Below, in pieces: positions 11,533-57,022 of a stretch of DNA of 64,000 nucleotides. Origin of the DNA: Candidatus Eiseniibacteriota bacterium (lineage in GTDB: Bacteria; Eisenbacteria; RBG-16-71-46); NCBI GenBank assembly GCA_963717935.1, contig CAVQXP010000003.1, positions 56,819 through 120,818 on the forward strand. Reading direction: 5' to 3'. Under the pieces are notes generated by a model. That model had not been told where the DNA came from, did no database searches, and worked only from the letters and a program-made list of their open reading frames with translations. The position numbers and the translations under genes are program-made. Position 1 is the stretch's first letter, and each line of letters begins with the position of its first letter.

Positions 11533-12484
11533 ATGAGACGCCCCGTCCTGCTCCTCGTCCTGGTGTGCCTGGCCATGGCCGCCGCTCCCGCTGCCCGTGC
11601 CCAGCGGACCTTCGACGAGGTCGTGATCACGCCCACGAAGCTGACCGATGGCCTCTGGATGATCACCGGGGCCGGCGGGAACCTGCTGGTCTGCGCGGGC
11701 CCGGACGGCGTGCTGCTGGTGGACGCCCAGTACGGGCCGCTCGCGGCGAAGATCCTCGCCGTGGTGGACTCGCTCTCCGGCGGCCGTCCACTGCGCTTCG
11801 TCCTCAACACCCACTACCACGGCGACCATGTCGGCGGCGACTCGGCCATGGCCGCGGCGGGCGCGACCATCGTGGCGCACGCGAACGCGCGGCGGCGGAT
11901 GAGCGCGGACCGGTTCAACAAGACCCTGGGGGCCACCACGAAGGCGGTGCCGGCCGCGGGGCTGCCCGTGCTGACCTTCGGCGACTCGCTGACCTTCCAC
12001 CTGAATGGCCTGGAGATCCGCGTCCTGCACCTGCCGCCCGGCCACACCGACGGGGACGCGGTGGTCTGGATCCCGGGCGCGAACGTGCTGCACACGGGCG
12101 ACCTGTTCTTCAACGGCACCTACCCGGTGATCGACGCCTCGGCCGGTGGCTCCATCGAGGGGATGCTCCGCGTCCTCGACCCACTGCTGCCCATCGTGAC
12201 GTTCACGACGAAGGTCGTTCCCGGGCATGGTCCGCTCGCCGACCGCGCCGCGCTGCTGCGCTTCCGGGGCATGCTCCTGGCGGTGCGCGACCGCGTGACG
12301 GCGCTCGTGAAGGACGGCCGCACCCTCGGGCAGGTGATGGCGGCGAAGCCCCTCGCCGACCTGGACCGGGATCTGGGGCACCGGCTTCATGACGCCCGAA
12401 GCCTTCCTGCAGATCGCCTACCAGGACCTCTCTCGGGAGCCGCCGCCCCCGCTGCCCGACCTCCTCCACGACCACCACCACTGA
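11533..12484 (+). CDS. Secreted MBL-fold metallo-hydrolase (cyclase-like); apparent +1 frameshift near 12369
   Basis: Signal peptide, NTHYHGDHVGG, GHTDGD, HTGDLFF, PGHG; removing one G gives IWGTGFMTPEAFLQIAYQDLS...HDHHH* ending at 12484. Confidence 0.85.
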
Positions 12485-12493
12485 GCGTCGCGC

Positions 12494-12865
12494 ATGCGCG
12501 CGTTCCTGCTGCTCCTGCCCGCCGGCGTGAGCGCGCTCCTCCTGGGCGCGCACTTCCTGCGCCGGGACGATCCCGGCCTGGTGGTCATCAGCCTGGTGCT
12601 CTTCGGGCTGCTCTTCGTGCGCCGGCTGTGGGCCGCGCGCCTCGTGCAGCTCGGACTGCTCGCGGGCGCGCTCGAGTGGCTGCGCACGCTGGCGGCACTG
12701 CTCCCCGCACGACGTGCCGCGGGCGAGCCCTGGATGCGCCTGGCCGCGATCCTCGGCGGGGTGGCGCTGCTGGCGCTGCTGGGCGCGGCGCTCCTCGAGA
12801 CCCGCAGGCTCAGGGAGCGCTACCGCGGCCCCCGGCCCGCCGGGCGGGTCGGAGGAGCCCGCTGA
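12494..12865 (+). CDS. Small membrane protein
   Basis: 123 aa, four hydrophobic segments, directly after the MBL gene. Confidence 0.65.
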   Translation: MRAFLLLLPAGVSALLLGAHFLRRDDPGLVVISLVLFGLLFVRRLWAARLVQLGLLAGALEWLRTLAALLPARRAAGEPWMRLAAILGGVALLALLGAALLETRRLRERYRGPRPAGRVGGAR

Positions 12866-12904
12866 GCCGGTAGCCGCTTCCACCCGCCCGGGGCGGCTGG
12901 AACC

Positions 12905-13192
12905 TCAGGCGTCGAGGCGGACGGAGCAGCGACCGAAGCGGCCGAAGGCGAAGCTCAGCCGGGCGGGATGCGCGCGAGCCGCCAGCACGTCCCGATGGAC
13001 GTAGAGGGCGATCCCGCCGGCGTCCAGGCACTCATGCCCGGCGGGGTCTTCCGGGATCTCGAGCGACCCGACCGGGCCGCGCTCGACCGTTCATCAGCCG
13101 TGCATGATCGCCTGGAGCGAGACATACAGTGCCCCGCCCCGGGCGGCGATGTACTCCCGGAGTTCCTCGGACTCGAAGCGGGCGTGTCGCAT
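12905..13192 (-). CDS. Candidate small selenoprotein with two adjacent selenocysteines (CC/Se-motif, HesB-like family)
   Basis: MRHARFESEELREYIAARGGALYVSLQAIMHG-TGA-TGA-TVERGPVGSLEIPEDPAGHECLDAGGIALYVHRDVL...RLSFAFGRFGRCSVRLDA*; 55 of the 61 codons after the TGAs end in G/C; SECIS-like hairpin follows. Confidence 0.75.
13060..13085 (-). promoter_or_regulatory. Putative bacterial SECIS hairpin
   Basis: mRNA CGAGCGCGGCCC-GGUC-GGGUCGCUCG; G-led apical loop 17 and 20 nt after the two UGAs. Confidence 0.65.
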
Positions 13193-13263
13193 GGCGGTCA
13201 GCATACCGGAAACCGCGGGGTGGGGCGATTCCCATCCGGGTCGTGCGCTCCTTCGTCTCCGGT

Positions 13264-14163
13264 CTAGGCCCGGCCCTGACGACATGGCTGCGCGCGCCTC
13301 ACGCTTTCCCACTGGATGGTGGGATGCACGATGCCGAAGCGCTCAGAAAGGTCGTGAGCGATGCGCGAGGTGAGATCGTCGTCGAAGGTCGCGCGGTCCG
13401 TGACGAGGTGTGCCGTGAGCGCGGTCTCGGTGGTGCTCATGGCCCAGATGTGGAAGTCGTGCACGTCGACGACGCCCGGCACGGCCTCGAGATAGCCCCG
13501 GACCGCCACCGGGTCGATCCGGCCGGGTACGGCGTCCATGGCCAGATCGAGCGACTCCCGCAGGATCCTCCAGGCACCGACCACGATGAGCGCGCTCACC
13601 AGCAGGCTGACGACAGGGTCGAGCCACGGCCAGCGGGTGAAGACCATGGCCACGCCGGCGAGGACGACTCCGAGGGAGACGGCTGCATCCGCCACGAGAT
13701 GCGAGGCGGCGGCGCGCACGTTCAGATCGTCGCGACGGCCACGTCCCAGGAGCCAGGCGCTCAGACCGTTCACGAGGATGCCGAGCGAGGCCACGGCGAT
13801 GACCGTGGGCGCGGCGACCGGCCCCGGATGACGAAGCCGCTGCACCGCTTCGAGCGCGACGGCGCCCACCGCGATCAGCAGCACGACGGCGTTGGCCAGC
13901 GCCGCGAGGATGGTGGAGCGCCGCAGACCATAGGTGCGCCGGGTGCTGGGCGCGCGTCGGGCCAGGAGGATCGCGCCCCAGGCGAGCAGCAGGCCGAGCA
14001 CGTCGCCGAGGTTGTGACCGGCGTCCGAGAGCAGTGCGAGGGAGCCGGACCGGAACCCGAACACGACCTCGAAGACGACGAAGGTGACGTTGAGCCCCAC
14101 CGCCACGAGGAAGGCGGTGCGGACCCCGTCCGCGGCGGGCGGATGTGGATGGTCATGCGTCAT
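13264..14163 (-). CDS. Cation diffusion facilitator (CzcD/ZitB-like)
   Basis: SLALLSDAGHNLGDV, NVRAAASHLVAD, DVHDFHIWAMST, HPTIQWE. Confidence 0.92.
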   Translation of the reverse strand: MTHDHPHPPAADGVRTAFLVAVGLNVTFVVFEVVFGFRSGSLALLSDAGHNLGDVLGLLLAWGAILLARRAPSTRRTYGLRRSTILAALANAVVLLIAVGAVALEAVQRLRHPGPVAAPTVIAVASLGILVNGLSAWLLGRGRRDDLNVRAAASHLVADAAVSLGVVLAGVAMVFTRWPWLDPVVSLLVSALIVVGAWRILRESLDLAMDAVPGRIDPVAVRGYLEAVPGVVDVHDFHIWAMSTTETALTAHLVTDRATFDDDLTSRIAHDLSERFGIVHPTIQWESVRRAQPCRQGRA

Positions 14164-14489: not shown

Positions 14490-15524
14490 TCACATCAGCC
14501 AGTTGAACAGGTAGCCCACCAGGACGATCCCGACCGTGACCACCCCGAGGAACACCGCGATCAGCGCGGGTTTGAGCACCTTCCGCAGGATGATGGTCTC
14601 CGGCAGCGACAGCGCGATCACCGCCATCATGAACGCGAGCACCGTCCCCAGCGCGGCGCCCTTCTCGAGCAGGGCATGCACGACCGGGATGATCCCGGCC
14701 GCGTTCGAGTACATCGGCACGCCGATGAGCACGGCGAGCGGCACCGACCACCAGGCCCCCCGGCCCATGATGGACGCCATGAAGTTCTCGGGCACCCACC
14801 CGTGGATGCCGGCGCCCACGGCGATGCCGATCAGGACGTAGGGCCAGACCTTGCCCACGATGTCGCGCACCGCCTCGAGCCCGCGGCCCAGGCGCTCCTC
14901 CCACGTCGTCCGGTGTTCGGGCAGCCCGGCCTCGCCCGCGTCCATCTGATAGACCCAGGGCTCGACGTGGCGCTCGAGCCGCAGGCGACCGATGACCCAG
15001 CCCGCGACGATGGCCACGGTCAGGCCGGTCCCGAGGTAGAGGGCCGCCACCTTCCAGCCGAACAGCCCGAACAGCAGGGCGAGCGCGACCTCGTTCACCA
15101 TGGGGGCCGAGATCAGGAAGGAGAACGTCACGCCCAGCGGGATGCCCGCGGTCAGGAAGCCGATGAACAGCGGCACCGCCGAGCACGAGCAGAACGGCGT
15201 CACGATGCCGAGGGCGGCGGCCAGCACGTTGCCCACCGACTCGGCCTTGCCCGCGAGGATGGCGCGCGTGCGCTCGGGCGTGAAGAACGAGCGCACCACG
15301 CCGACGCCGAACACGACCAGCGTCAGGAGCAGGAGCACCTTGGGTGTCTCGTAGACGAAGAACTCGACCGCGCTGGCGAGGTGCGTGCCGGCGTCGAGCC
15401 CCAGCAGGTCGCGCGTGAACCACGCGGCCGCCTGCTGGAGCGCGCCGTAGAGCGCGACCCAGAGCAACAGGGCGCCCGCCAGGGAGAGGAGCAGGCGCGG
15501 AAGCCGCGCCGGGGGCCTGCTCAT
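14490..15524 (-). CDS. ArsP/DUF318-family permease
   Basis: VTPFCSCSAVP, SAPMVNE, GVPMYSNAAG, ALSLPE motifs. Confidence 0.88.
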   Translation of the reverse strand: MSRPPARLPRLLLSLAGALLLWVALYGALQQAAAWFTRDLLGLDAGTHLASAVEFFVYETPKVLLLLTLVVFGVGVVRSFFTPERTRAILAGKAESVGNVLAAALGIVTPFCSCSAVPLFIGFLTAGIPLGVTFSFLISAPMVNEVALALLFGLFGWKVAALYLGTGLTVAIVAGWVIGRLRLERHVEPWVYQMDAGEAGLPEHRTTWEERLGRGLEAVRDIVGKVWPYVLIGIAVGAGIHGWVPENFMASIMGRGAWWSVPLAVLIGVPMYSNAAGIIPVVHALLEKGAALGTVLAFMMAVIALSLPETIILRKVLKPALIAVFLGVVTVGIVLVGYLFNWLM

Positions 15525-15531
15525 CGGGGTC

Positions 15532-16599
15532 TCACGCCGCCGGCTCGCGGAACCAGCGCCGCCGCAACCACAGCGCCACGTTCACCAGGCCGATCAGGGC
15601 CGGCACCTCGACCAGCGGCCCGATCACCGCCGCGAAGGCGGCGCCGTGGTGGATGCCGAAGGTCGCGACCGCCACGGCGATGGCCAGCTCGAAGTTGTTC
15701 GAGGCGGCGGTGAACGAGAGCGTCGCCGACTGCGGGTAGCTCGCGCCCACCCGCTTGCTCATGAAGAACGAGACCATGAACATGACGACGAAGTAGATGA
15801 GCAGCGGGATGGCGATGCGCACCACGTCGAAGGGCAGCTGGACGATCTTCTCGCCCTTGAGCGAGAACATCACGACGATGGTGAAGAGCAGGGCGATCAG
15901 CGTGATCGGGCTGATCTTCGGGATGAACCGGCGCTGGTACCAGTCCCTTCCCTTCGCCCGCAGCAGCGCGAAGCGCGTGATGATCCCGGCCAGGAACGGA
16001 ATGCCGAGGTAGATGAAGACGCTCCGGGCGATCTCGGCCATCGTGATGTTCACGGCCACGCCCTTCAATCCGAGCCAGCCCGGCGCGAGCGTGATGAAGA
16101 CGTAGGCGTAGAGCGGGAAGAAGAGCACCTGGAAGACCGAGTTGAAGGCGACCAGGCCCGCGCAGTACTCGCTGTCGCCCCGGGCCAGGTCGTTCCAGAC
16201 GATGACCATGGCGATGCAGCGCGCCAGGCCGATCAGGATGAGCCCCACCATGTACTCGGGCTGGTCCCGCAGGAAGAGCACGGCGAGGCCGAACATGAGG
16301 ATCGGGCCGACCACCCAGTTCTGCACCAGCGAGAGCGCGAGCACCCGCCCATCGCGGAAGACGCGGCCCATCTCCTCGTAGCGGACCTTCGCCAGCGGCG
16401 GGTACATCATGAGGATGAGCCCGATGGCGATGGGGATGGACGTGGTGCCGGCGTTGAAGCGGTTCAGGAAGGGCACCAGGCCGGGGAACCGCCAGCCACC
16501 GCCGACGCCGACGGCCATGGCGAGGAAGATCCAGAGCGTCAGGTAGCGGTCGAGGAAGGAGAGCCGGCCGGTGACTCCGGCAGGGGAGGGCTCAGGCAT
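15532..16599 (-). CDS. arsB: ACR3-family arsenite efflux transporter
   Basis: [48 protein letters not shown]. Confidence 0.95.
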
Positions 16600-17068
16600 G
16601 CGAAGGTCCGCTTCGGCGGGAGGGCGCGCGCGCGGGCGATGCGCGCCGGGCCCGGCGGGCGGGGCGGGGTGCCGCGACCTGCGCGAGACGCGACGGCGCC
16701 CGCCGGGCCGGTGGCAGGGCGCACAGCGCCTCGACCGGGACGGCCTTCACGCTGCGCAACCGGCGGCGGTCCTCGAGGATGCGGGGCTCCCGGTCGAGCG
16801 GCCCGCGCAGCAGGGCCAGCACCGCGCGGGCGTAGGGGTTGCGCTTCTCCGTGGCGAGCGCGTAGTGGCTCCAGCGGCCGTCGCGCCGGTCGGCCACCAG
16901 TCCCGCGACCCGGAGCAGCGCCAGGTGCTTCGAGACCGTGGAGGGAGCGAGCCCGAGCACGGCCTGCACCTGGCAGACGCACAGCGGGCCGGCCTCGAGC
17001 AGCTTGAGGATGCGCGTGCGGGTCGGGTCGCCGGCGGCCTTGAGCGCCGCCTCGAGCTCAAGCAGCAT
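16592..17068 (-). CDS. arsR: ArsR/SmtB family repressor
   Basis: [17 protein letters not shown] metal site, [27 protein letters not shown]. Confidence 0.9.
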
Positions 17069-17079
17069 GGCCGTCCTTC

Positions 17080-17126
17080 CATTTCGCCATGTGACGAAAT
17101 GTAGTATCATGGCGCGTGGCCGTCAA
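17080..17126 (-). promoter_or_regulatory. sigma70-type promoter overlapping a palindromic ArsR operator
   Basis: TTGACG (17126-17121)-N17-TACATT (17103-17098); inverted repeat CATTTCG-N8-CGAAATG at 17080-17101. Confidence 0.7.
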
Positions 17127-17220
17127 GCGGCTCCGGGTTCGCCGGGCCGTCCGTGCCGCCGCGGTGCCCGAGATCGAGAGGCTGCTCGAGCCCCGAACGC
17201 CGAGTCCAAGGAGGATCCCA

Positions 17221-17622
17221 GTGACAGGTCGCACCGGACGCACCGCGCTGCTGCTCGTGAGCCTGGTGCTCATCGCTGCCGTGCCCGCTCTCGCCCGCAA
17301 GGCCCCGAAGCCCGCGCCGCCCGCCGCGCTCCCGCGCCTCCTGGACCTGGGCGCGACGAAGTGCATCCCGTGCAAGCGCATGGCCCCCATCCTCGAGGCG
17401 CTCAAGGTGGATTACGCCGGCGCCGTGGACGTGCAGTTCATCGATGTCTGGCAGAACCCGCAGGCCGGCAGGCCGTACGGCATCCGGCTGATCCCCACGC
17501 AGATCTTCTTCGACCGGGCGGGCCGCGAGCGGTTCCGGCACGAGGGCTTCTACGCCCGCAAGGAGATCGAGCGGATCTTCAAGGACAGTCTCGGCGTGGC
17601 CCTGCGCCCCGCGGCGAAGTAG
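17221..17622 (+). CDS. Exported thioredoxin-family protein
   Basis: Signal peptide; DLGATKCIPCKRM; IRLIPTQIFFD; RHEGF; GTG start after AAGGAGGA. Confidence 0.88.
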   Translation: MTGRTGRTALLLVSLVLIAAVPALARKAPKPAPPAALPRLLDLGATKCIPCKRMAPILEALKVDYAGAVDVQFIDVWQNPQAGRPYGIRLIPTQIFFDRAGRERFRHEGFYARKEIERIFKDSLGVALRPAAK

Positions 17623-17638
17623 CGGGACCGGGGGACGC

Positions 17639-18337
17639 GTGGACGTCCTGGAGGGTCTGAGCGAGCAGCTCGCCTCGGTCATCGCCCACAGTCCCGCGCT
17701 GGCGCCGCTGGCCGCGTTCCTCGGCGGCGCGCTCACCGCGCTCAACCCGTGCGTGCTGGCGATGGTCCCGCTCATGGTCGGCTTCTCGGCCGGCCTGGTC
17801 GGGCGTGGCGCGACGGGGCGCCCCTGGCGGCGCACCCTGGGTTTCTCCCTGCTCTTCGTCGGGGGCTTCGCGCTCGAGCTGGCGCTGCTCTTCACCGTCT
17901 TCTCCGGCGCGACGGCGGTCCTGAGCGCGCCCTGGTGGCGCTACGTGCTGGTGGCCGTGTGCGCCGTCACCGCGCTGCACCTGCTCGGCTGGCTGCGCCT
18001 GCCGTCGATCCCCCTGCCGCCGGCCGCCGCGCGGGCCGCGGGCGCGCTGGGCGCGCTCACGCTCGGCTTCGTCTTCGGGATCGTCTCGCTGCCGTGCACG
18101 GGGCCGGTGCTGCTGCTGCTGCTGGCCCTGGTCCCGCGGATCGGCGCGGCCGCGGCGGGCGGCCTGCTGTTCGCCTACGGGCTCGGGCACTCGCTGCTGC
18201 TGCTCGTGGCCGGTACCTCGGTCGGCGCGGCCGCGGCGCTCGCCCGCCCGGGCCGTCTCCAGACCGCGACCCGCTGGGTGCGCGTGGTCGCGGCCCTCCT
18301 GATCCTCGCGGGCGGGGCCTGGTTGTTCACGCACTGA
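17639..18337 (+). CDS. CcdA/DsbD-like transmembrane disulfide reductase
   Basis: LNPCVLAMVP and SLPCTGPVL paired PC motifs; YGLGH; six TM segments. Confidence 0.85.
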   Translation: MDVLEGLSEQLASVIAHSPALAPLAAFLGGALTALNPCVLAMVPLMVGFSAGLVGRGATGRPWRRTLGFSLLFVGGFALELALLFTVFSGATAVLSAPWWRYVLVAVCAVTALHLLGWLRLPSIPLPPAAARAAGALGALTLGFVFGIVSLPCTGPVLLLLLALVPRIGAAAAGGLLFAYGLGHSLLLLVAGTSVGAAAALARPGRLQTATRWVRVVAALLILAGGAWLFTH

Positions 18338-29727: not shown

Positions 29728-29789
29728 CGTAAGCTTCCCCTCCAGGTAGACAGCCGCTGCTAGACTCTCCCGGGTCACGGGGAGGGCGC

Positions 29790-30056
29790 ATGAAGAAGGC
29801 GCGGTTCACGGAGTCGCAGATCGTGGCAATTCTGAAGGAGGGCGAGGCCGGCCTGACGGTGGCCGAGATCGCCCGCAAGCACGGGATCAGCAAGAACACG
29901 TACTTCAACTGGAAGTCACGCTACGGCGGAGCGACGGTGTCGGATCTGAGGCGGCTGAAAGAGCTCGAGGCCGAGAACGCCAAGCTGAAGCGGATGTACA
30001 GCGAGCTGGCGCTCGAGAACGCGGCGATCAAGGACCTGCTTCACCGAAAACCGTAA
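29790..30056 (+). CDS. IS3 transposase OrfA
   Basis: MKKARFTESQIVAILKE...ARKHGIS..TYFNWKSRY...LKELEAENAKLKRMY. Confidence 0.92.
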   Translation: MKKARFTESQIVAILKEGEAGLTVAEIARKHGISKNTYFNWKSRYGGATVSDLRRLKELEAENAKLKRMYSELALENAAIKDLLHRKP

Positions 30057-36918: not shown

Positions 36919-37063
36919 CCTGGGCCTCCCGTGGGAATGACGCGGCCATTCTATCCCACGCCGCATCCGTCTGGCACCCCGCCGCGCGCCCTGAAAACCC
37001 GCGTGGGTTGTGGCATACTCCCCGCCGCGAACATCGGCTCACCCTGGAGTGCGCGGAGACGAC

Positions 37064-37846
37064 ATGGAGCCCATGGAACTCAAGGAGATGAAGGCGGCCC
37101 ACCGGGTCCTGGCCGCGCTCGACTACCCGCCGGGCGAGGTCGAGCGCGGCTACGCGAACCGGACGCTGCACGTGGACCTGGGCGCGAACACGATCGAGGC
37201 CCGGCCGGTCACGCAGTACATGAAGGACTTCTTCACCGGCGGCAAGGGGTTCGACCTCTACCTGATGTGGAAGTCCGTCCCCGGCCCGATCCCCTGGGAC
37301 GACCCGCGCAACGGGCTCTACTTCTCCGCGGGGCCGCTGGCCGGAACGCCGTATTTCTCGGGCTCGGGCAAGTGCCTGGTCACCGGCATCTCGCCGCTCA
37401 CCAGCTCCGTCATGGACTGCAACGTCGGCGGGCACTTCGGGCCGCTGCTCAAGTTCGCCGGCTTCGACGCCCTCGAGGTGCGCGGCAAGGCCTCCGAGTT
37501 CGTGATGCTGGTCATCGACGGCGACGCGCACCGCGTCACGCTCGAGACCGCGCCGCACGAGGCGCTCGACTCCTACGACGTCGCCAGCCAGCTGCACCGC
37601 ATGTACGCCCGCACGCCCGCCGAGCTGCAGGACATCTCGGTCGTGTCGGCGGGCCGGGGGGCGCTCCACACGCTGATCGGCTGCATCAACATCTCGTTCT
37701 ACGACTGGAAGCGCCACGAGCCGCGCCTCAAGCAGGCCGGCCGCGGCGGACTGGGCAGCGTGATGATGAACAAGCAGCTCAAGGCGATCGTGGCCCGGAC
37801 GGCGAAGAACCGTCCGCGCTGGGCGATGTCGGTGGAGGCGCCATGA
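37064..37846 (+). CDS. Aldehyde ferredoxin oxidoreductase, N-terminal domain only
   Basis: GYANRTLHVDL, GGKGF, ISPLT..MDCNVGGHFGPLLKFAGFDA, KQAGRGGLGSV; stop overlaps next start (ATGA). Confidence 0.85.
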   Translation: MEPMELKEMKAAHRVLAALDYPPGEVERGYANRTLHVDLGANTIEARPVTQYMKDFFTGGKGFDLYLMWKSVPGPIPWDDPRNGLYFSAGPLAGTPYFSGSGKCLVTGISPLTSSVMDCNVGGHFGPLLKFAGFDALEVRGKASEFVMLVIDGDAHRVTLETAPHEALDSYDVASQLHRMYARTPAELQDISVVSAGRGALHTLIGCINISFYDWKRHEPRLKQAGRGGLGSVMMNKQLKAIVARTAKNRPRWAMSVEAP

Positions 37847-38394
37847 GCCCCGGAGGGAATGGCTCCATGCCTACGGTGATCGTTCCGGACGTGCTCGGGG
37901 TGGACGCCATCGTGGACCGCTGGGGCGCGGACCCCGAGTTCGCCGTCGAGATGCTGCAGGACGTCCAGAAGCACTACCGGCACCTGCCGAAGACCGCGCT
38001 CGAGCGCATCGCCGAGCGCACGCACGCCGACCTGGCGCGGCTCTACCACATCGCCACCTTCTTCAAGGCGTTCTCGCTGACGCCGCGCGGCGAGACCACG
38101 ATCCAGGTCTGCACCGGCACCGCCTGCCACGTGCAGGGCGCGGCGCGGGTGCTCGACGCCTTCGGCCGCGAGCTGGGCGTGAAGCCGGGCGAGACCACCG
38201 CGGACCAGAAGTACAGCCTCGAGGGCGTGCGCTGCCTGGGCTGCTGCGGGCTGGCGCCGGTGGTGACCTTCGGAGCGGAGCTGGTCGGCGGGGTGGACTC
38301 CTCCAAGGTCGGCAAGCTGATGCGCCGGCACCGCAAGACCGGCTCCGTGGTCGCGCGGCAGGCGAGCGCCGCGGCGGAGGACGCCGATGCCTAG
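37843..38394 (+). CDS. NuoE/HydC-like [2Fe-2S] subunit
   Basis: ATFFKAFS, CTGTACHVQG, CLGCCGLAP. Confidence 0.92.
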   Translation: MSPGGNGSMPTVIVPDVLGVDAIVDRWGADPEFAVEMLQDVQKHYRHLPKTALERIAERTHADLARLYHIATFFKAFSLTPRGETTIQVCTGTACHVQGAARVLDAFGRELGVKPGETTADQKYSLEGVRCLGCCGLAPVVTFGAELVGGVDSSKVGKLMRRHRKTGSVVARQASAAAEDADA

Positions 38395-39777
38395 GGTGAC
38401 CCTCGAGAACCTCGACACCCTGGCGCGCGAGGCCCAGCGGCGCCACGCGGGCTGGAAGTCCATGCTCATGGTCTGCGCCGGCACGGGCTGCGTCTCGGCC
38501 AAGTCGCTGCCCCTGCGCGATGCCTTCCGCCAGGAGCTCGAGCGCCGCGGCCTGCAGGACGAGATCAAGGTCGTGGCCACGGGCTGCAACGGCTTCTGCG
38601 CCCACGGGCCGATCTGCGTGGTCCAGCCCGAGGGCGTGTTCTACGAGCGCCTCAAGGCCGAGGCCGTGCCCGAGCTGATCGAGTCGCACTTCGTGAGGAA
38701 GCAGCCGCTCGAGGACTTCCTCTACCGCTCGAGCGGCGGCGAGAAGACGGTCCCGCTCGAGAAGGACATCGAGTTCTTCGCCAAGCAGCAGTGCATCGCG
38801 CTGCGCAACCGGGGCCGGATCGACCCCGAGGACATCACGGACGCGATCCGCACCGGCGCGTACCAGGCGCTCGCGAAGATCCTGCGCGAGGGGCTCGACG
38901 GCGACACGCTCGTCCAGCGACTGGTCCGCTCGGGGCTGCGCGGGCGCGGCGGCGGCGGTTTCCCCGCCGGCGTCAAGTGGAAGTCCTGCCTCGAGGCCGC
39001 GCGCGCGCAGGACGTGCGCCCCTTCATCGTCTGCAACGGCGACGAGGGCGACCCGGGCGCCTTCATGGACCGCAGCATCGTCGAGGCCGACCCGCACGCC
39101 GTGATCGAGGGCATGCTGATCGGCGCGCGGGCGCTCGGCGCCACCGAGGGCTTCGTCTACATCCGCCACGAGTACCCGCTGGCGCTCCAGCGTCTCATCC
39201 GGGCGCTCCAGCAGGCCCGCGAGTGGGGCCTGCTGGGCAAGGACATCCTGGGCACGGGGATGGAGTTCGACATCACCATCCACCGCGGCGCCGGCGCCTT
39301 CGTCTGCGGCGAGTCCACCGCGCTCATGGCCTCCATGGCGGGCCGCGCCGGCGAGCCCCGGGCGAAGTACGTGCACACCGTCGAGCACGGCTTCCGCGAC
39401 CTGCCGACGGTGCTCAACAACGTCGAGACCTGGGCCAACATCCCGCAGATCGTCCTGAACGGTCCCGAGTGGTTCGCCGCGATCGGCACCGGCGACGTCT
39501 CGAAGTCGCCCTGGGGCGGCAGCAGCGGCACCAAGGTCTTCTCGCTGGTCGGCAACATCCGCAACTCGGGTCTGGTCGAGGTGCCGATGGGCATCACGCT
39601 GCGCGAGATCGTCTTCGACATCGGCGGCGGAATCCCGGACGGCAGGAAGTTCAAGGCCGTGCAGACCGGCGGCCCCTCGGGCGGCTGCCTGCCCGAGTCG
39701 AAGCTCGACCTGGCGGTGGGACTTCGACACGCTGGTCGAGGCCGGCTCCATGATGGGCTCGGGCGGCATGATCGTGC
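38387..39777 (+). CDS. NuoF/HydB-like NADH-binding flavoprotein; frameshift near 39719, truncated at the junction
   Basis: N-terminal CAGTGC/GCNGFC ferredoxin; GLRGRGGGGFP, NGDEGDPGAFMDR, GAGAFVCGE, GGPSGGC, GSMMGSGGMIV then break. Confidence 0.92.
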
Positions 39778-41779
39778 ACCCAAGACTACCGTTTCGCCAT
39801 CATGCACGGCCACGGAGCTGTCAATTTCTTTTTTATCAATAGTTGGGGATTGCTTTTGTGTTGCTGAAGCGGAAGATGCTACTGGTACTACGTTACTGAC
39901 AATTTGTTTCAGTTTCATAATCACCAAGCCGTTGGCATTGACTCTGGGAGTGACATCCAGGGTAACACCGGTATCTTTATATTGAATGGTATTGGATACG
40001 GCTCCATTGTTAATAGCACCACCCAGAGGGATCGTGGTACTGCCGGTTGATATGGGGACTTGTTGACCCACATTTATTTTTGCTTTCTGATTATTTAACA
40101 CCATTAACGAAGGTGAAGAAATAACGTTGACATTTCCTAATGACGCCTCTGCACGTAAAAGCGCTTTCACCGAGCCCGCATTATAAAACATGCTAAGACC
40201 GCCGGTTGATGCTGCTGCTGCTGCTGCTGCTGCTGAGGGAAGACTACCTATAAATCCCGTGGGTTTATCGTCATTATTTAAATACCAGGCGATACCATAC
40301 TTTAAATTATCCTCTAATTTGACCTGCACGACTGTGGCATCAATCAAAACTTGTAGCGGCATTACATCCAGTTGGTTAATAATCGGCAAGATGACTTCGT
40401 AGTCTTGCGCAGAGGCCACGATAATCACTGAATTATTGGGTTCATCGGCAATGATATTTACCTTGCCGACATTGGCGACTTTAATATCTCCAGAGTCCAC
40501 TGCCTCCCGATGATTTTTCATCTGACTTATTTACGGCGAACGCTCCCAGATTGCCGGATGGCTCATTACCTGCCGATGACTTTTCATCAGACTGTGTAAA
40601 GGCTAGGGATCCCGGAGTGCCGGACAGCGTATTACCAGTATTGCCGGTATTGCTCGCATTCGACATTGATGAAGCTGTTTCTCCAGGCGCAACCTTGGCT
40701 GATTTGGTTTTTTTGGCACCCCCTGAGAAAATTGCATTCAAGGTATCTGCCAATTCCCCGGCATCAGCATGTTGCACTTTATAGACATTTACACCACCGC
40801 CCGAAGCCGTATTGGCCTTATCCAACCTGAATACCCAGTTTTCAATATCATTCAGATAGTGCGCCTGACGGGTAACCGCCAAGACCGCATTTAAGCGATC
40901 TATCGGTAAAAACTCAAAAAACTCTGATTTGTCGCCTTTACCTTTTGGATGAAAAACCGTTTGTAACTCTTCAATCATGGTGTCAGGATCAACATGGGCC
41001 AATGGGAATAAACCAAATGAACGCCCCTTTAATAAATCAATATCAAAAGTGCTGACTAAATCCATTACCCTCGCGATTTCATCGGCTGTTCCCGAAGCCA
41101 CCATAATATTGCGGGCGGGATCTACATTGAGTATGGTTTTTTCATGCACCAAGGGTTTCAAAATATCGGCAATTTCCTGCACGGCGACGTTTCTAACCGG
41201 TATAACCCGAGTTTGATACCCTGATCGACTACTTGACATATCGGAAATAAATAAGGCATCTGCCACAGGCTCAATATGATAAATCTTGCCATTCTTAACC
41301 AAAGCCGCATTGTTCATCCGCAGAACCATTTCCAGGGTAGGCAGTAACTCTTCTTTGGTTAAGGGTTCAGTGGTTTGTAACGTGACCTTGCCGACTACTT
41401 TGGGGCTTAATACGTAGTTTTGCCCGAGGATATCGCTCAAGATCACTTTTGCCACTTCGCCAAGGTCGGCATCATCAAAGTTAAGACTGTATGAACCCGT
41501 ACCCGTCGAGGGCGTTTTTCTGTTTTGCGGCGTGGTACCGGATACAAAACGGTCAGTCCCCGGATACAGCTCACTTTTTGTTTGTTTCGATCCGGCAGCG
41601 GGTGGTTTATTTTGCATTTGCTGAAAAACCACATCCGGTTGCTCCCTTGTTACTGAATCTAACGACCTTTTTGCGCTAAGTTGAGGGCCCATTAACTCAC
41701 AGCTTCCAAGTGATAAGCCTATAAGCAAAAAGCAGGAGGCCGTTGTTACTTTTTTAAAGTTACTCATTATTATTCTCAA
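39778..41779 (-). CDS. gspD: T2SS secretin (lipoprotein type); frameshift near 40495, C-terminus truncated at the junction
   Basis: LSLGSC lipobox; SLNFDDADL, QVLIDATVVQV, SSPSLMVLNNQKAKINVG, YKDTGVTLDVTPRVN, DGETVVLG. Confidence 0.92.
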
Positions 41780-56787: not shown

Positions 56788-57022
56788 AACCGCCTCCCTG
56801 CGCTGCGTTACTGCCCGACCCCGCCTCGCGGCTACCATAGTTATGCGCACGAAACCCGCTTTGCAAAGGATAAGCATCCGAAGCCATCTGCGGCTTGGCA
56901 AGCGTGCCACGCTCCCAGGGTTTTACTGTCGCGCAGCCGCTAAGGCATAGTCCCAGGCTTATCCCGGTCAGTATCGATGATTTGAACAAATAGTTTTTCA
57001 CAGTTATTCCCAATTTAAGCAA
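56774..57022 (-). CDS. DUF4266 lipoprotein
   Basis: LSGC lipobox, VKPWERGTLA, SRE, C-terminal GGGCGCN. Confidence 0.9.
   Translation of the reverse strand: MLKLGITVKNYLFKSSILTGISLGLCLSGCATVKPWERGTLAKPQMASDAYPLQSGFRAHNYGSREAGSGSNAAQGGGCGCN

Follow-up and report, generated by a model that had tools for sequence, protein, structure and literature searches.

The gene described here lies in a 64,000-nucleotide stretch of DNA from a Candidatus Eiseniibacteriota bacterium (positions 56,819 to 120,818 of contig CAVQXP010000003.1, assembly GCA_963717935.1), which was analysed as a whole and is referred to as the window; all coordinates are those of the window unless a locus is named. It occupies positions 13192 to 12905 of the minus strand and is distinguished by two adjacent in-frame UGA codons, each proposed to encode selenocysteine (Sec, U), for which reason it is called the UU gene and its product the UU protein. 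Judging from its sequence and from those of its relatives, this stretch is very probably a single gene that encodes a 95-residue selenoprotein with the adjacent residues U33 and U34. Its parts, including a hairpin that resembles a bacterial selenocysteine insertion sequence (bSECIS), are the following:

12905..13192, minus strand: the whole UU gene, 95 codons and a terminal TGA, with the product M1...G32-U33-U34-T35...A95; four colinear full-length relatives, and a match of residues 8-75 to the family NF041239

13097..13192, minus strand: N-terminal segment, codons 1-32 (MRHARFESEELREYIAARGGALYVSLQAIMHG), ending in ...AIMHG, where gene callers report a peptide of 32-36 residues; seven N-terminal fragments in databases, and synonymous changes

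13094..13096, minus strand: UGA1, codon 33, proposed Sec; TGA in five of five loci

13091..13093, minus strand: UGA2, codon 34, proposed Sec; TGA in five of five loci

12908..13090, minus strand: C-terminal segment, codons 35-95 (TVERGPVGSLEIP...FAFGRFGRCSVRLDA); 22 C-terminal database fragments in a phmmer search and others in a later search

13057..13086, minus strand: bSECIS-like hairpin within the coding sequence; 7-bp core stem, GGUC loop and imperfect outer pairs

An earlier note on this DNA, made from the letters alone, had placed an ATG at 13192, 32 codons, TGA TGA at 13096-13091, 61 further codons, and a TGA at 12905. Re-reading the minus strand returns the same layout: the start codon is the ATG at 13192, 32 codons precede the TGA pair, and 61 sense codons (TVERGPVGSLEIPEDPAGHECLDAGGIALYVHRDVLAARAHPARLSFAFGRFGRCSVRLDA), T35...A95, stand between UGA2 and the terminal TGA at 12907-12905. 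The 55 downstream codons ending in G or C that the note had counted are reproduced as well, in that the fraction of such codons (GC3) in the stop-to-stop stretch 12905-13090 is 0.89 (~55/62 codons). This value, found downstream of the TGA pair, is typical of real genes in DNA of ~72% GC.

Relatives at the DNA level come from a profile search of a species-representative genome collection, which yielded four loci and, with the window, a set of five sequences. L001 belongs to an unclassified metagenome-assembled genome (MAG), L002 and L004 to Acidobacteriota MAGs, and L003 to a Candidatus Eisenbacteria chromosome. Two of the results that, according to the earlier note, would refute its proposal are similarity that stops at the TGAs and TGC or TGT codons at the site, and neither was observed. 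All four relatives can be aligned with the window protein from residue 1 through residues 93-95, at an identity of 59-83% (best segment) and with their stops in the same columns. In the DNA alignment, codons 33-34 read TGA TGA at all five loci, with identical frame and zero spacing, and neither TGC nor TGT occurs there in any of the five independent assemblies (0/5). This conservation is far beyond chance, and because each of the two positions is TGA in 5/5 loci, both codons are under selection as TGA. The N-terminal segment is coding, since synonymous changes are found among the five loci at R2, E7, R12, R18, G19, and L22. Purifying selection, as judged from synonymous changes at conserved residues, appears to act on both halves.

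The L003 copy carries one extra base at L003:6190-6200, after the ...ALYV codons, which shifts the frame past residue 65. Its conserved C-terminus (...RFGRCSIRLGAGA) carries on in the +1 frame, and the extra base would mean either that the assembly has an indel or that this copy recently became a pseudogene. This frameshift is what speaks for regarding the UU gene in general as a pseudogene or as an artefact of assembly or sequencing. Such an explanation is barely credible, given that both stops are common to five independent assemblies, that both halves show the marks of purifying selection, and that dozens of fragment clusters, related at 40-84% identity, break at the identical place.

These clusters emerged from searches of protein databases, in which the relatives are recorded as fragments split at the pair. 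An exhaustive phmmer search of 1.84 billion representatives gave 24 proteins at E <= 0.001, and the sequences of 18 of them were retrieved. The 24 consist of 22 C-terminal pieces (with a match from query residue 36 or later), one 32-residue N-terminal piece, and P0007, a 548-residue repeat protein that was set aside as unrelated. Word-indexed searches likewise returned fragments in every case (3/3, 10/10, and 35/35 matches), each covering no more than 62% of the query. In the alignment designated A8, the seven N-terminal pieces (P0004, P0020, P0031-34, and P0052) stop one column before the pair, while the C-terminal pieces begin no more than four residues past it. A full-length Cys form of the UU clade was retrieved neither by the exhaustive phmmer search nor by the word-indexed ones, and a tblastn search for the UU protein in 72,556 plasmid records was negative. 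Gene callers split the UU gene everywhere among the relatives found, which bears out the expectation that they would miss it. Because every database entry is a wrongly split fragment, annotation pipelines miss the whole family.

Taken at face value, these entries describe two small genes: a 32-residue peptide that ends at a fail-safe tandem stop, and a separate protein of ~60 residues just downstream. Annotation splits the locus in this manner in every database entry, and some relatives do have a GTG or ATG at codons 35-37. In the window, however, codon 69 is the first in-frame ATG, GTG, or TTG of the C-terminal half, which therefore cannot start separately; in the window, L001, and L003 alike, no such codon lies close to where the conserved C-terminal half begins. 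Frame and zero spacing are, moreover, the same in 5/5 loci, the family NF041239 matches residues 8-75 continuously, and AlphaFold2 joins both halves in one domain with a predicted local distance difference test (pLDDT) score of 90.7. Two separate genes are thus quite improbable, and the gene is continuous across both UGAs.

A few observations concern the start of the gene and the internal organization of its product. A TAnnnT-like hexamer stands 7 nt before the conserved ATG (TATGCT, CATACT, and TACGCT in the window at 13193-13215, in L001, and in L003, respectively), and the window lacks a clear Shine-Dalgarno sequence upstream of the ATG at 13192. In light of these two features, the transcript of the UU gene may be leaderless. 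The gene call of P0052 begins at an upstream ATG, at 13204, that is not conserved, and a promoter and terminator scan of 12600-13500 detected nothing. An internal duplication of the UU protein was considered and rejected; the hint had been that MAFFT placed N-terminal fragments on the C-terminal half, and BLASTP of the two halves gave no alignment at E <= 100.

The UU protein is related to one known family. When read with Cys at the pair, its residues 8-75 match positions 6-73 of the 91-position NCBIfam profile NF041239, the "CC/Se motif family (seleno)protein", with E = 1.2e-9. All four full-length members (4/4) match this profile, the other three with E values from 1.7e-8 to 4.8e-6. The earlier note had spoken of a "HesB-like CC/Se-motif family", a designation that merges two families. 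The CC/Se part holds, as NF041239 matches across the site (38.2 bits against a cutoff of 40). The HesB part does not hold at the sequence level: TIGR01911 has no sequence match, with NF041239 being the sole NCBIfam profile to match at E <= 10, and HesB/IscA is recovered only as a predicted fold.

The residue assumed at the pair influences the NF041239 score. With Gly (table 25), the window, L001, and L004 score 31.0, 26.5, and 22.3 bits, and with Trp (table 4) 27.3, 23.4, and 20.0 bits, compared to 38.2, 34.4, and 31.1 bits with Cys. Because Cys gains 7-11 bits over Gly or Trp in these three sequences, the profile appears to prefer Cys at both columns, which stands in indirectly for an alignment with Cys homologs. 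In the high-GC part of the window (positions 1-39,800) and the four loci, TGA is the terminator of 23/39 long open reading frames (ORFs), and it also terminates the UU gene itself in the window, L003, and L004. The long ORFs are open under table 11, and TGA is an ordinary stop in these organisms.

These data bear on the possibility of read-through without Sec, in which either TGA is part of a Gly or Trp code, or one or both UGAs receive Cys or Trp from near-cognate tRNAs. The ORFs scanned contain no Sec machinery, as this explanation would have it, and NF041239 still matches significantly when Gly or Trp is assumed (20-31 bits). It is nonetheless highly unlikely: TGA terminates the long ORFs as just described, including the UU gene in three sequences, these ORFs are open under table 11, and Cys outscores the two alternative residues. 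A non-Sec mechanism would further be expected to leave TGC, TGT, or TGG in some of the five loci, and it provides no role for the conserved hairpin. Plain Cys does not appear to be enough either, because TGC or TGT would then appear in some of the five loci, yet neither does. Thus, Sec is the reading that we infer for both codons.

The hairpin downstream of the pair has a core stem in which GCGGCCC (13080-13074) pairs with GGGUCGC (13069-13063) around the apical loop GGUC (13073-13070), and an imperfect outer extension reaches to ~13086/13057. Its bases encode R-G-P-V-G-S-L-E. The core hairpin begins 13 nt past UGA1 and 10 nt past UGA2, and the GGUC loop begins 20 and 17 nt after the respective codons, as had been described before. 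The published bSECIS consensus comprises (i) a loop of 3-9 nt, (ii) an upper stem of 4-16 bp, (iii) a distance of 16-37 nt between UGA and loop, and (iv) a minimum free energy (MFE) of -7.5 kcal/mol or lower (PMC13188914, section 5 and Fig. 2 legend), together with a G within the first two loop nucleotides, commonly followed by G or U (PMC13188914). The 36-nt stretches have an MFE of -19.4 kcal/mol for UGA1 and -17.1 kcal/mol for UGA2. The hairpin agrees with the published consensus for both UGAs, and the bacterial SECIS geometry attributed to it is therefore upheld.

The conservation of this element is more telling than its stability. All five sequences share GGCTGATGA and the 25 bases 13082-13058 without a single difference. 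Among codons for invariant residues, 10/10 are identical in codons 33-46 versus 16/37 elsewhere (Fisher one-sided p = 0.001), and for four- and six-fold degenerate invariant codons, counted by eye, the figures are 7/7 in codons 38-44 versus 9/27 elsewhere. This pattern points to a constraint at the RNA level, which appears to be the stronger evidence for a SECIS. Together with the invariant TGA pair, it indicates that the UU gene, which is real, almost certainly encodes a selenoprotein.

In the proposed decoding mechanism, the single in-gene hairpin would act as the bacterial SECIS for both UGAs. It would tether SelB-GTP-Sec-tRNA(Sec) while UGA1 occupies the A site, and one translocation later a second SelB complex would bind the same hairpin for UGA2. 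In the fdhF SECIS of E. coli, the G and U of the loop lie ~23-24 nt from the U of the UGA. By this spacing, the loop of the UU gene would sit between the ideal distances for UGA1 and UGA2, and its position and sequence would be frozen because of this intermediate placement. A second reason for invariance is that the same 24 bases must encode RGPVGSLE.

An alternative is that only one of the two UGAs specifies Sec, while the other one is passed over, decoded by a different tRNA, or used mainly for termination, such that the full-length product would be rare and selenium-dependent. Bacterial SECIS elements are position-sensitive, as is known from work on E. coli fdhF, UGA2 lies 17 nt from the loop and thus near the lower limit of 16, and no published description of two successive SelB deliveries from one hairpin was found. 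On the other hand, both codons are TGA in 5/5 loci, both spacings are within the published range, and no known signal for codon skipping is present here. A single Sec is consequently improbable, and one SECIS used twice is the preferred explanation.

Decoding of this type would have mechanistic implications. In bacteria, the hairpin must lie at a set distance from the UGA for Sec to be inserted, so two adjacent codons served by one hairpin would test the positional freedom of SelB, and they would also test the recruitment of a second SelB before a release factor acts. If the proposed mechanism is true, SelB can be reloaded on the one hairpin in the course of a single translocation step. The resulting vicinal Sec-Sec would be a chemically unusual site that forms an eight-membered diselenide ring or offers a very soft bidentate ligand, and could serve as a model for selenium-based metal(loid) binding.

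An AlphaFold2 model built from a 23-row alignment depicts the whole chain as one domain, with the above pLDDT of 90.7 and a predicted template modelling (pTM) score of 0.80. It supersedes an earlier model from 4 rows that reached a pLDDT of 66.6 and gave no usable Foldseek matches. In the 23-row model, U33-U34 is located at the turn between the strands 21-31 and 35-43, which is the tip of a beta-hairpin. The best 9 of 312 Foldseek matches in the PDB are IscA, SufA, DsrR-type, or structural-genomics chains, with E values of 0.024-0.6 and TMq of 0.40-0.51. The top match is E. coli IscA (1s98_A, probability 0.96, E = 0.024), and the nine include IscA with mercury or a [2Fe-2S] cluster, SufA, DsrR, AQ_1857, and HI1723, the last two being structural-genomics chains that we take to be IscA-like. 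A profile sequence search of the PDB gave only a chance match (E = 0.93). The predicted fold hence appears to be IscA/HesB-like, and the resemblance to that family lies at the level of the fold only.

The ligands of IscA are Cys35 and the two cysteines of a C-terminal CxC. The UU protein lacks a CxC, and its sequence offers only U33, U34, and C89 as candidate ligands. Conjecturally, Cys89 may lie near the Sec-Sec pair in the fold. A subgroup of relatives with the motif FGxxGW (P0014, P0025, P0040, and P0054-P0056) has M, S, or A in place of Cys89, and the Sec-Sec pair may be the sole chalcogen site in its members.

The surroundings of the UU gene provide clues to a possible function. The neighbouring genes in the window are the following:

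11533..12873, plus strand: metallo-beta-lactamase-fold gene, convergent with the UU gene, with a like arrangement in L003; domain matches

13264..14163, minus strand: cation efflux transporter of the CDF family, directly upstream of the UU gene; PF01545, PF16916, TIGR01297 (243 bits)

14490..17110, minus strand: genes for an ArsR/SmtB regulator, the arsenite efflux transporter ACR3, and a permease of the ArsP_1 type, which precede the CDF gene in this order; NF033788 (86.9 bits), TIGR00832 acr3 (453.9 bits), PF03773 (259 bits)

17116..18337, plus strand: thioredoxin gene paired with a DsbD_TM (CcdA-like) gene, the two divergent from arsR; domain matches

In the window, the UU gene is the last of a same-strand row comprising ArsR, ACR3, the ArsP_1-type permease, and CDF. 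In L001, it is divergent from a row of ArsP_1, ACR3, and a low-molecular-weight phosphatase (ArsC-type), and thioredoxin and CcdA follow directly after it. L003 has CDF and ArsR within 6 kb, in addition to the convergent metallo-beta-lactamase-fold gene. Arsenic/metal resistance clusters therefore surround the UU gene in 2/5 loci, and CDF and ArsR accompany it in a third.

On this basis, the Sec-Sec pair could function as a ligand for soft metals or metalloids (As(III), Hg, Cd, or Zn type) in a small cytosolic binder or carrier. Alternatively, it could be a diselenide/diselenol redox centre in resistance clusters of the ArsR type, for which the neighbouring thioredoxin and CcdA would be the likely reductants. 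The arsenic metallochaperone ArsD serves as a working analogy for the proposed function only, with no homology claimed. ArsD is a small cytosolic protein of ars clusters with a thioredoxin-like fold, in which the vicinal pair Cys12-Cys13, which binds As(III), is accompanied by Cys18; it uses Cys and not Sec.

Four known groups of proteins share individual traits with the UU protein. The first is NF041239, which is similarly small (91 profile positions versus 95 residues), has Cys preferred at the two columns here, and is a family with selenoproteins (PMC13188914, Table 1). Its motif is listed as CxxU with one Sec, in contrast to the invariant adjacent UGAs of the UU clade, which scores below 40 bits and for which no Cys-form ortholog was retrieved. 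The second group comprises IscA/SufA and the HesB-like selenoprotein (TIGR01911, motif UxGP). These resemble the UU protein in predicted fold and include a known selenoprotein family (PMC13188914), but they differ from it in the lack of any sequence-level match, in the missing CxC with C89 as the only Cys, and in that the UU protein has a vicinal pair rather than a single reactive residue.

The third group consists of SaoL, SaoC, HgcA, and MbdU, the CU/CC dipeptide selenoproteins that Haft and Gwadz place in organometallic and metal biochemistry. Their vicinal chalcogen pair with Sec is read as a ligand for metals or organometals, and their database entries are typically truncated at the UGA (bioRxiv 10.1101/2022.07.06.499078; PMC13188914). 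They carry Cys-Sec and not Sec-Sec, have other folds, and belong to SAO or Hgc gene sets that are absent here, although the permease next to the UU gene is a distant relative of SaoE (133 bits versus a cutoff of 325).

The fourth is the algal selenoprotein PDI_e (GUGUU), which has consecutive Sec codons and is reported as the first Sec-Sec motif (PMC7539508). It is eukaryotic, its SECIS elements were predicted apart from the coding site (PMC7539508), and its fold and family are unrelated; in the UU gene, by comparison, an in-gene hairpin 17-20 nt away must serve both codons. In the open-access literature, no adjacent Sec-Sec was found for bacteria, and the sole consecutive case found in print is that of PDI_e (PMC7539508). 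Among the 119 families in Table 1 of a 2026 review (PMC13188914), the motifs UxxU, UxxxxU, and CU are present and UU is absent; it is also absent from Table 1 of a 2022 review (PMC9312934). On balance, we consider it probable that the UU proteins are the first natural bacterial Sec-Sec family: a clade of the IscA fold with UGA-UGA at 5/5 DNA loci and one SECIS for both codons, in which a vicinal diselenol/diselenide would bind soft metal(loid)s or act as a redox centre at loci of arsenic/metal resistance.

Several findings weigh against this reading, in whole or in part. With regard to the family relation, the NF041239 scores (38.1-38.2 bits for the window, 34.4 for L001, 26.6 for L002, and 31.1-32.1 for L004) are all below the curated cutoff of 40, and for this reason the UU clade was not filed as a member. 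By the score differences, the CC columns of NF041239 would fall on U33-U34. Table 1 of PMC13188914 gives the family a single Sec in a CxxU motif, and its known Sec site may therefore be another column. With regard to the fold, none of the 312 Foldseek matches reaches E <= 0.001. Alignment of profiles with hhalign puts the pair (U33) opposite Cys35 of E. coli IscA, at a non-significant E of 0.13 and a probability of 0.4%, and no Pfam family, Fe-S_biosyn included, matches the UU protein at E <= 10. Cys89 (FGRFGRC) is kept in most relatives and is A, S, or M in some; a three-ligand site is weakened because this Cys is not universal.

The hairpin and the genomic setting add to these points. Among 750 TGA-downstream stretches of the same high-GC part, the hairpin ranks in the best 3.5% (UGA1) and 6.1% (UGA2) by stability, which on its own is only modestly unusual. 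A plain fold of 61 nt is not better than that of shuffled sequences (z = 0.70). No covariation is seen in the hairpin among the five loci, which is not possible in the core because the core is invariant, and substitutions in the outer stem of L002 and L004 break pairs with no compensation. Rfam, run on the whole window at gathering thresholds, gave no match. No selA, selB, or selD gene was found among the ORFs scanned, a subset of those in the 39.8-kb high-GC part, and ARAGORN found no tRNA genes in the whole window. The neighbours differ in L002 and L004, where the upstream side is taken by aldehyde dehydrogenase or MoeA and the downstream side by NuoE/F-like and aldehyde:ferredoxin oxidoreductase (AFOR) genes. 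The function suggested above derives from the gene neighbourhoods of 3/5 loci and from how vicinal chalcogen pairs behave chemically, and it is weaker than the decoding. Finally, the DNA-level evidence is limited to five loci, one of which has the frameshift noted for L003.

A permissive Rfam scan of 12850-13250 returned two miRNA matches only, which were judged to be chance. The ArsP_1-type permease of the resistance row (14490-15581, minus strand) has SaoE, at the score given above, and the SO_0444 Cu/Zn efflux family as its best NCBIfam matches. SO_0444 is listed as containing selenoproteins (PMC13188914); the open permease ORF suggests a Cys-type or non-Sec form here.

Further along the window, an ORF at 29733-30056 (plus strand) matches the N-terminal part of IS3-family transposases with 49.7 bits versus a cutoff of 160 and is probably an insertion-sequence remnant. 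An AFOR-like ORF at 36995-37846 (plus strand) spans only the first ~200 profile positions. It was considered as a second selenoprotein gene and rejected, as the frame past its TGA is Arg/Pro/Ser-rich noise; the gene appears from its sequence to be truncated or frameshifted. It is followed by a NuoF-like gene at 38321-39985, and in L002 and L004 the UU gene has genes of these types as its neighbours.

At ~39,800, the GC content falls from ~0.70 to ~0.45 within 100 bases (1-39,800 versus 39,800-64,000). The low-GC part, in which all of the following lie on the minus strand, harbors a type II secretion cluster (secretin N-domains, GspE, GspF, GspK, and PilN-like) and ApbE. ORFs span the GC junction, and the window looks like two unrelated sequences joined at this point.

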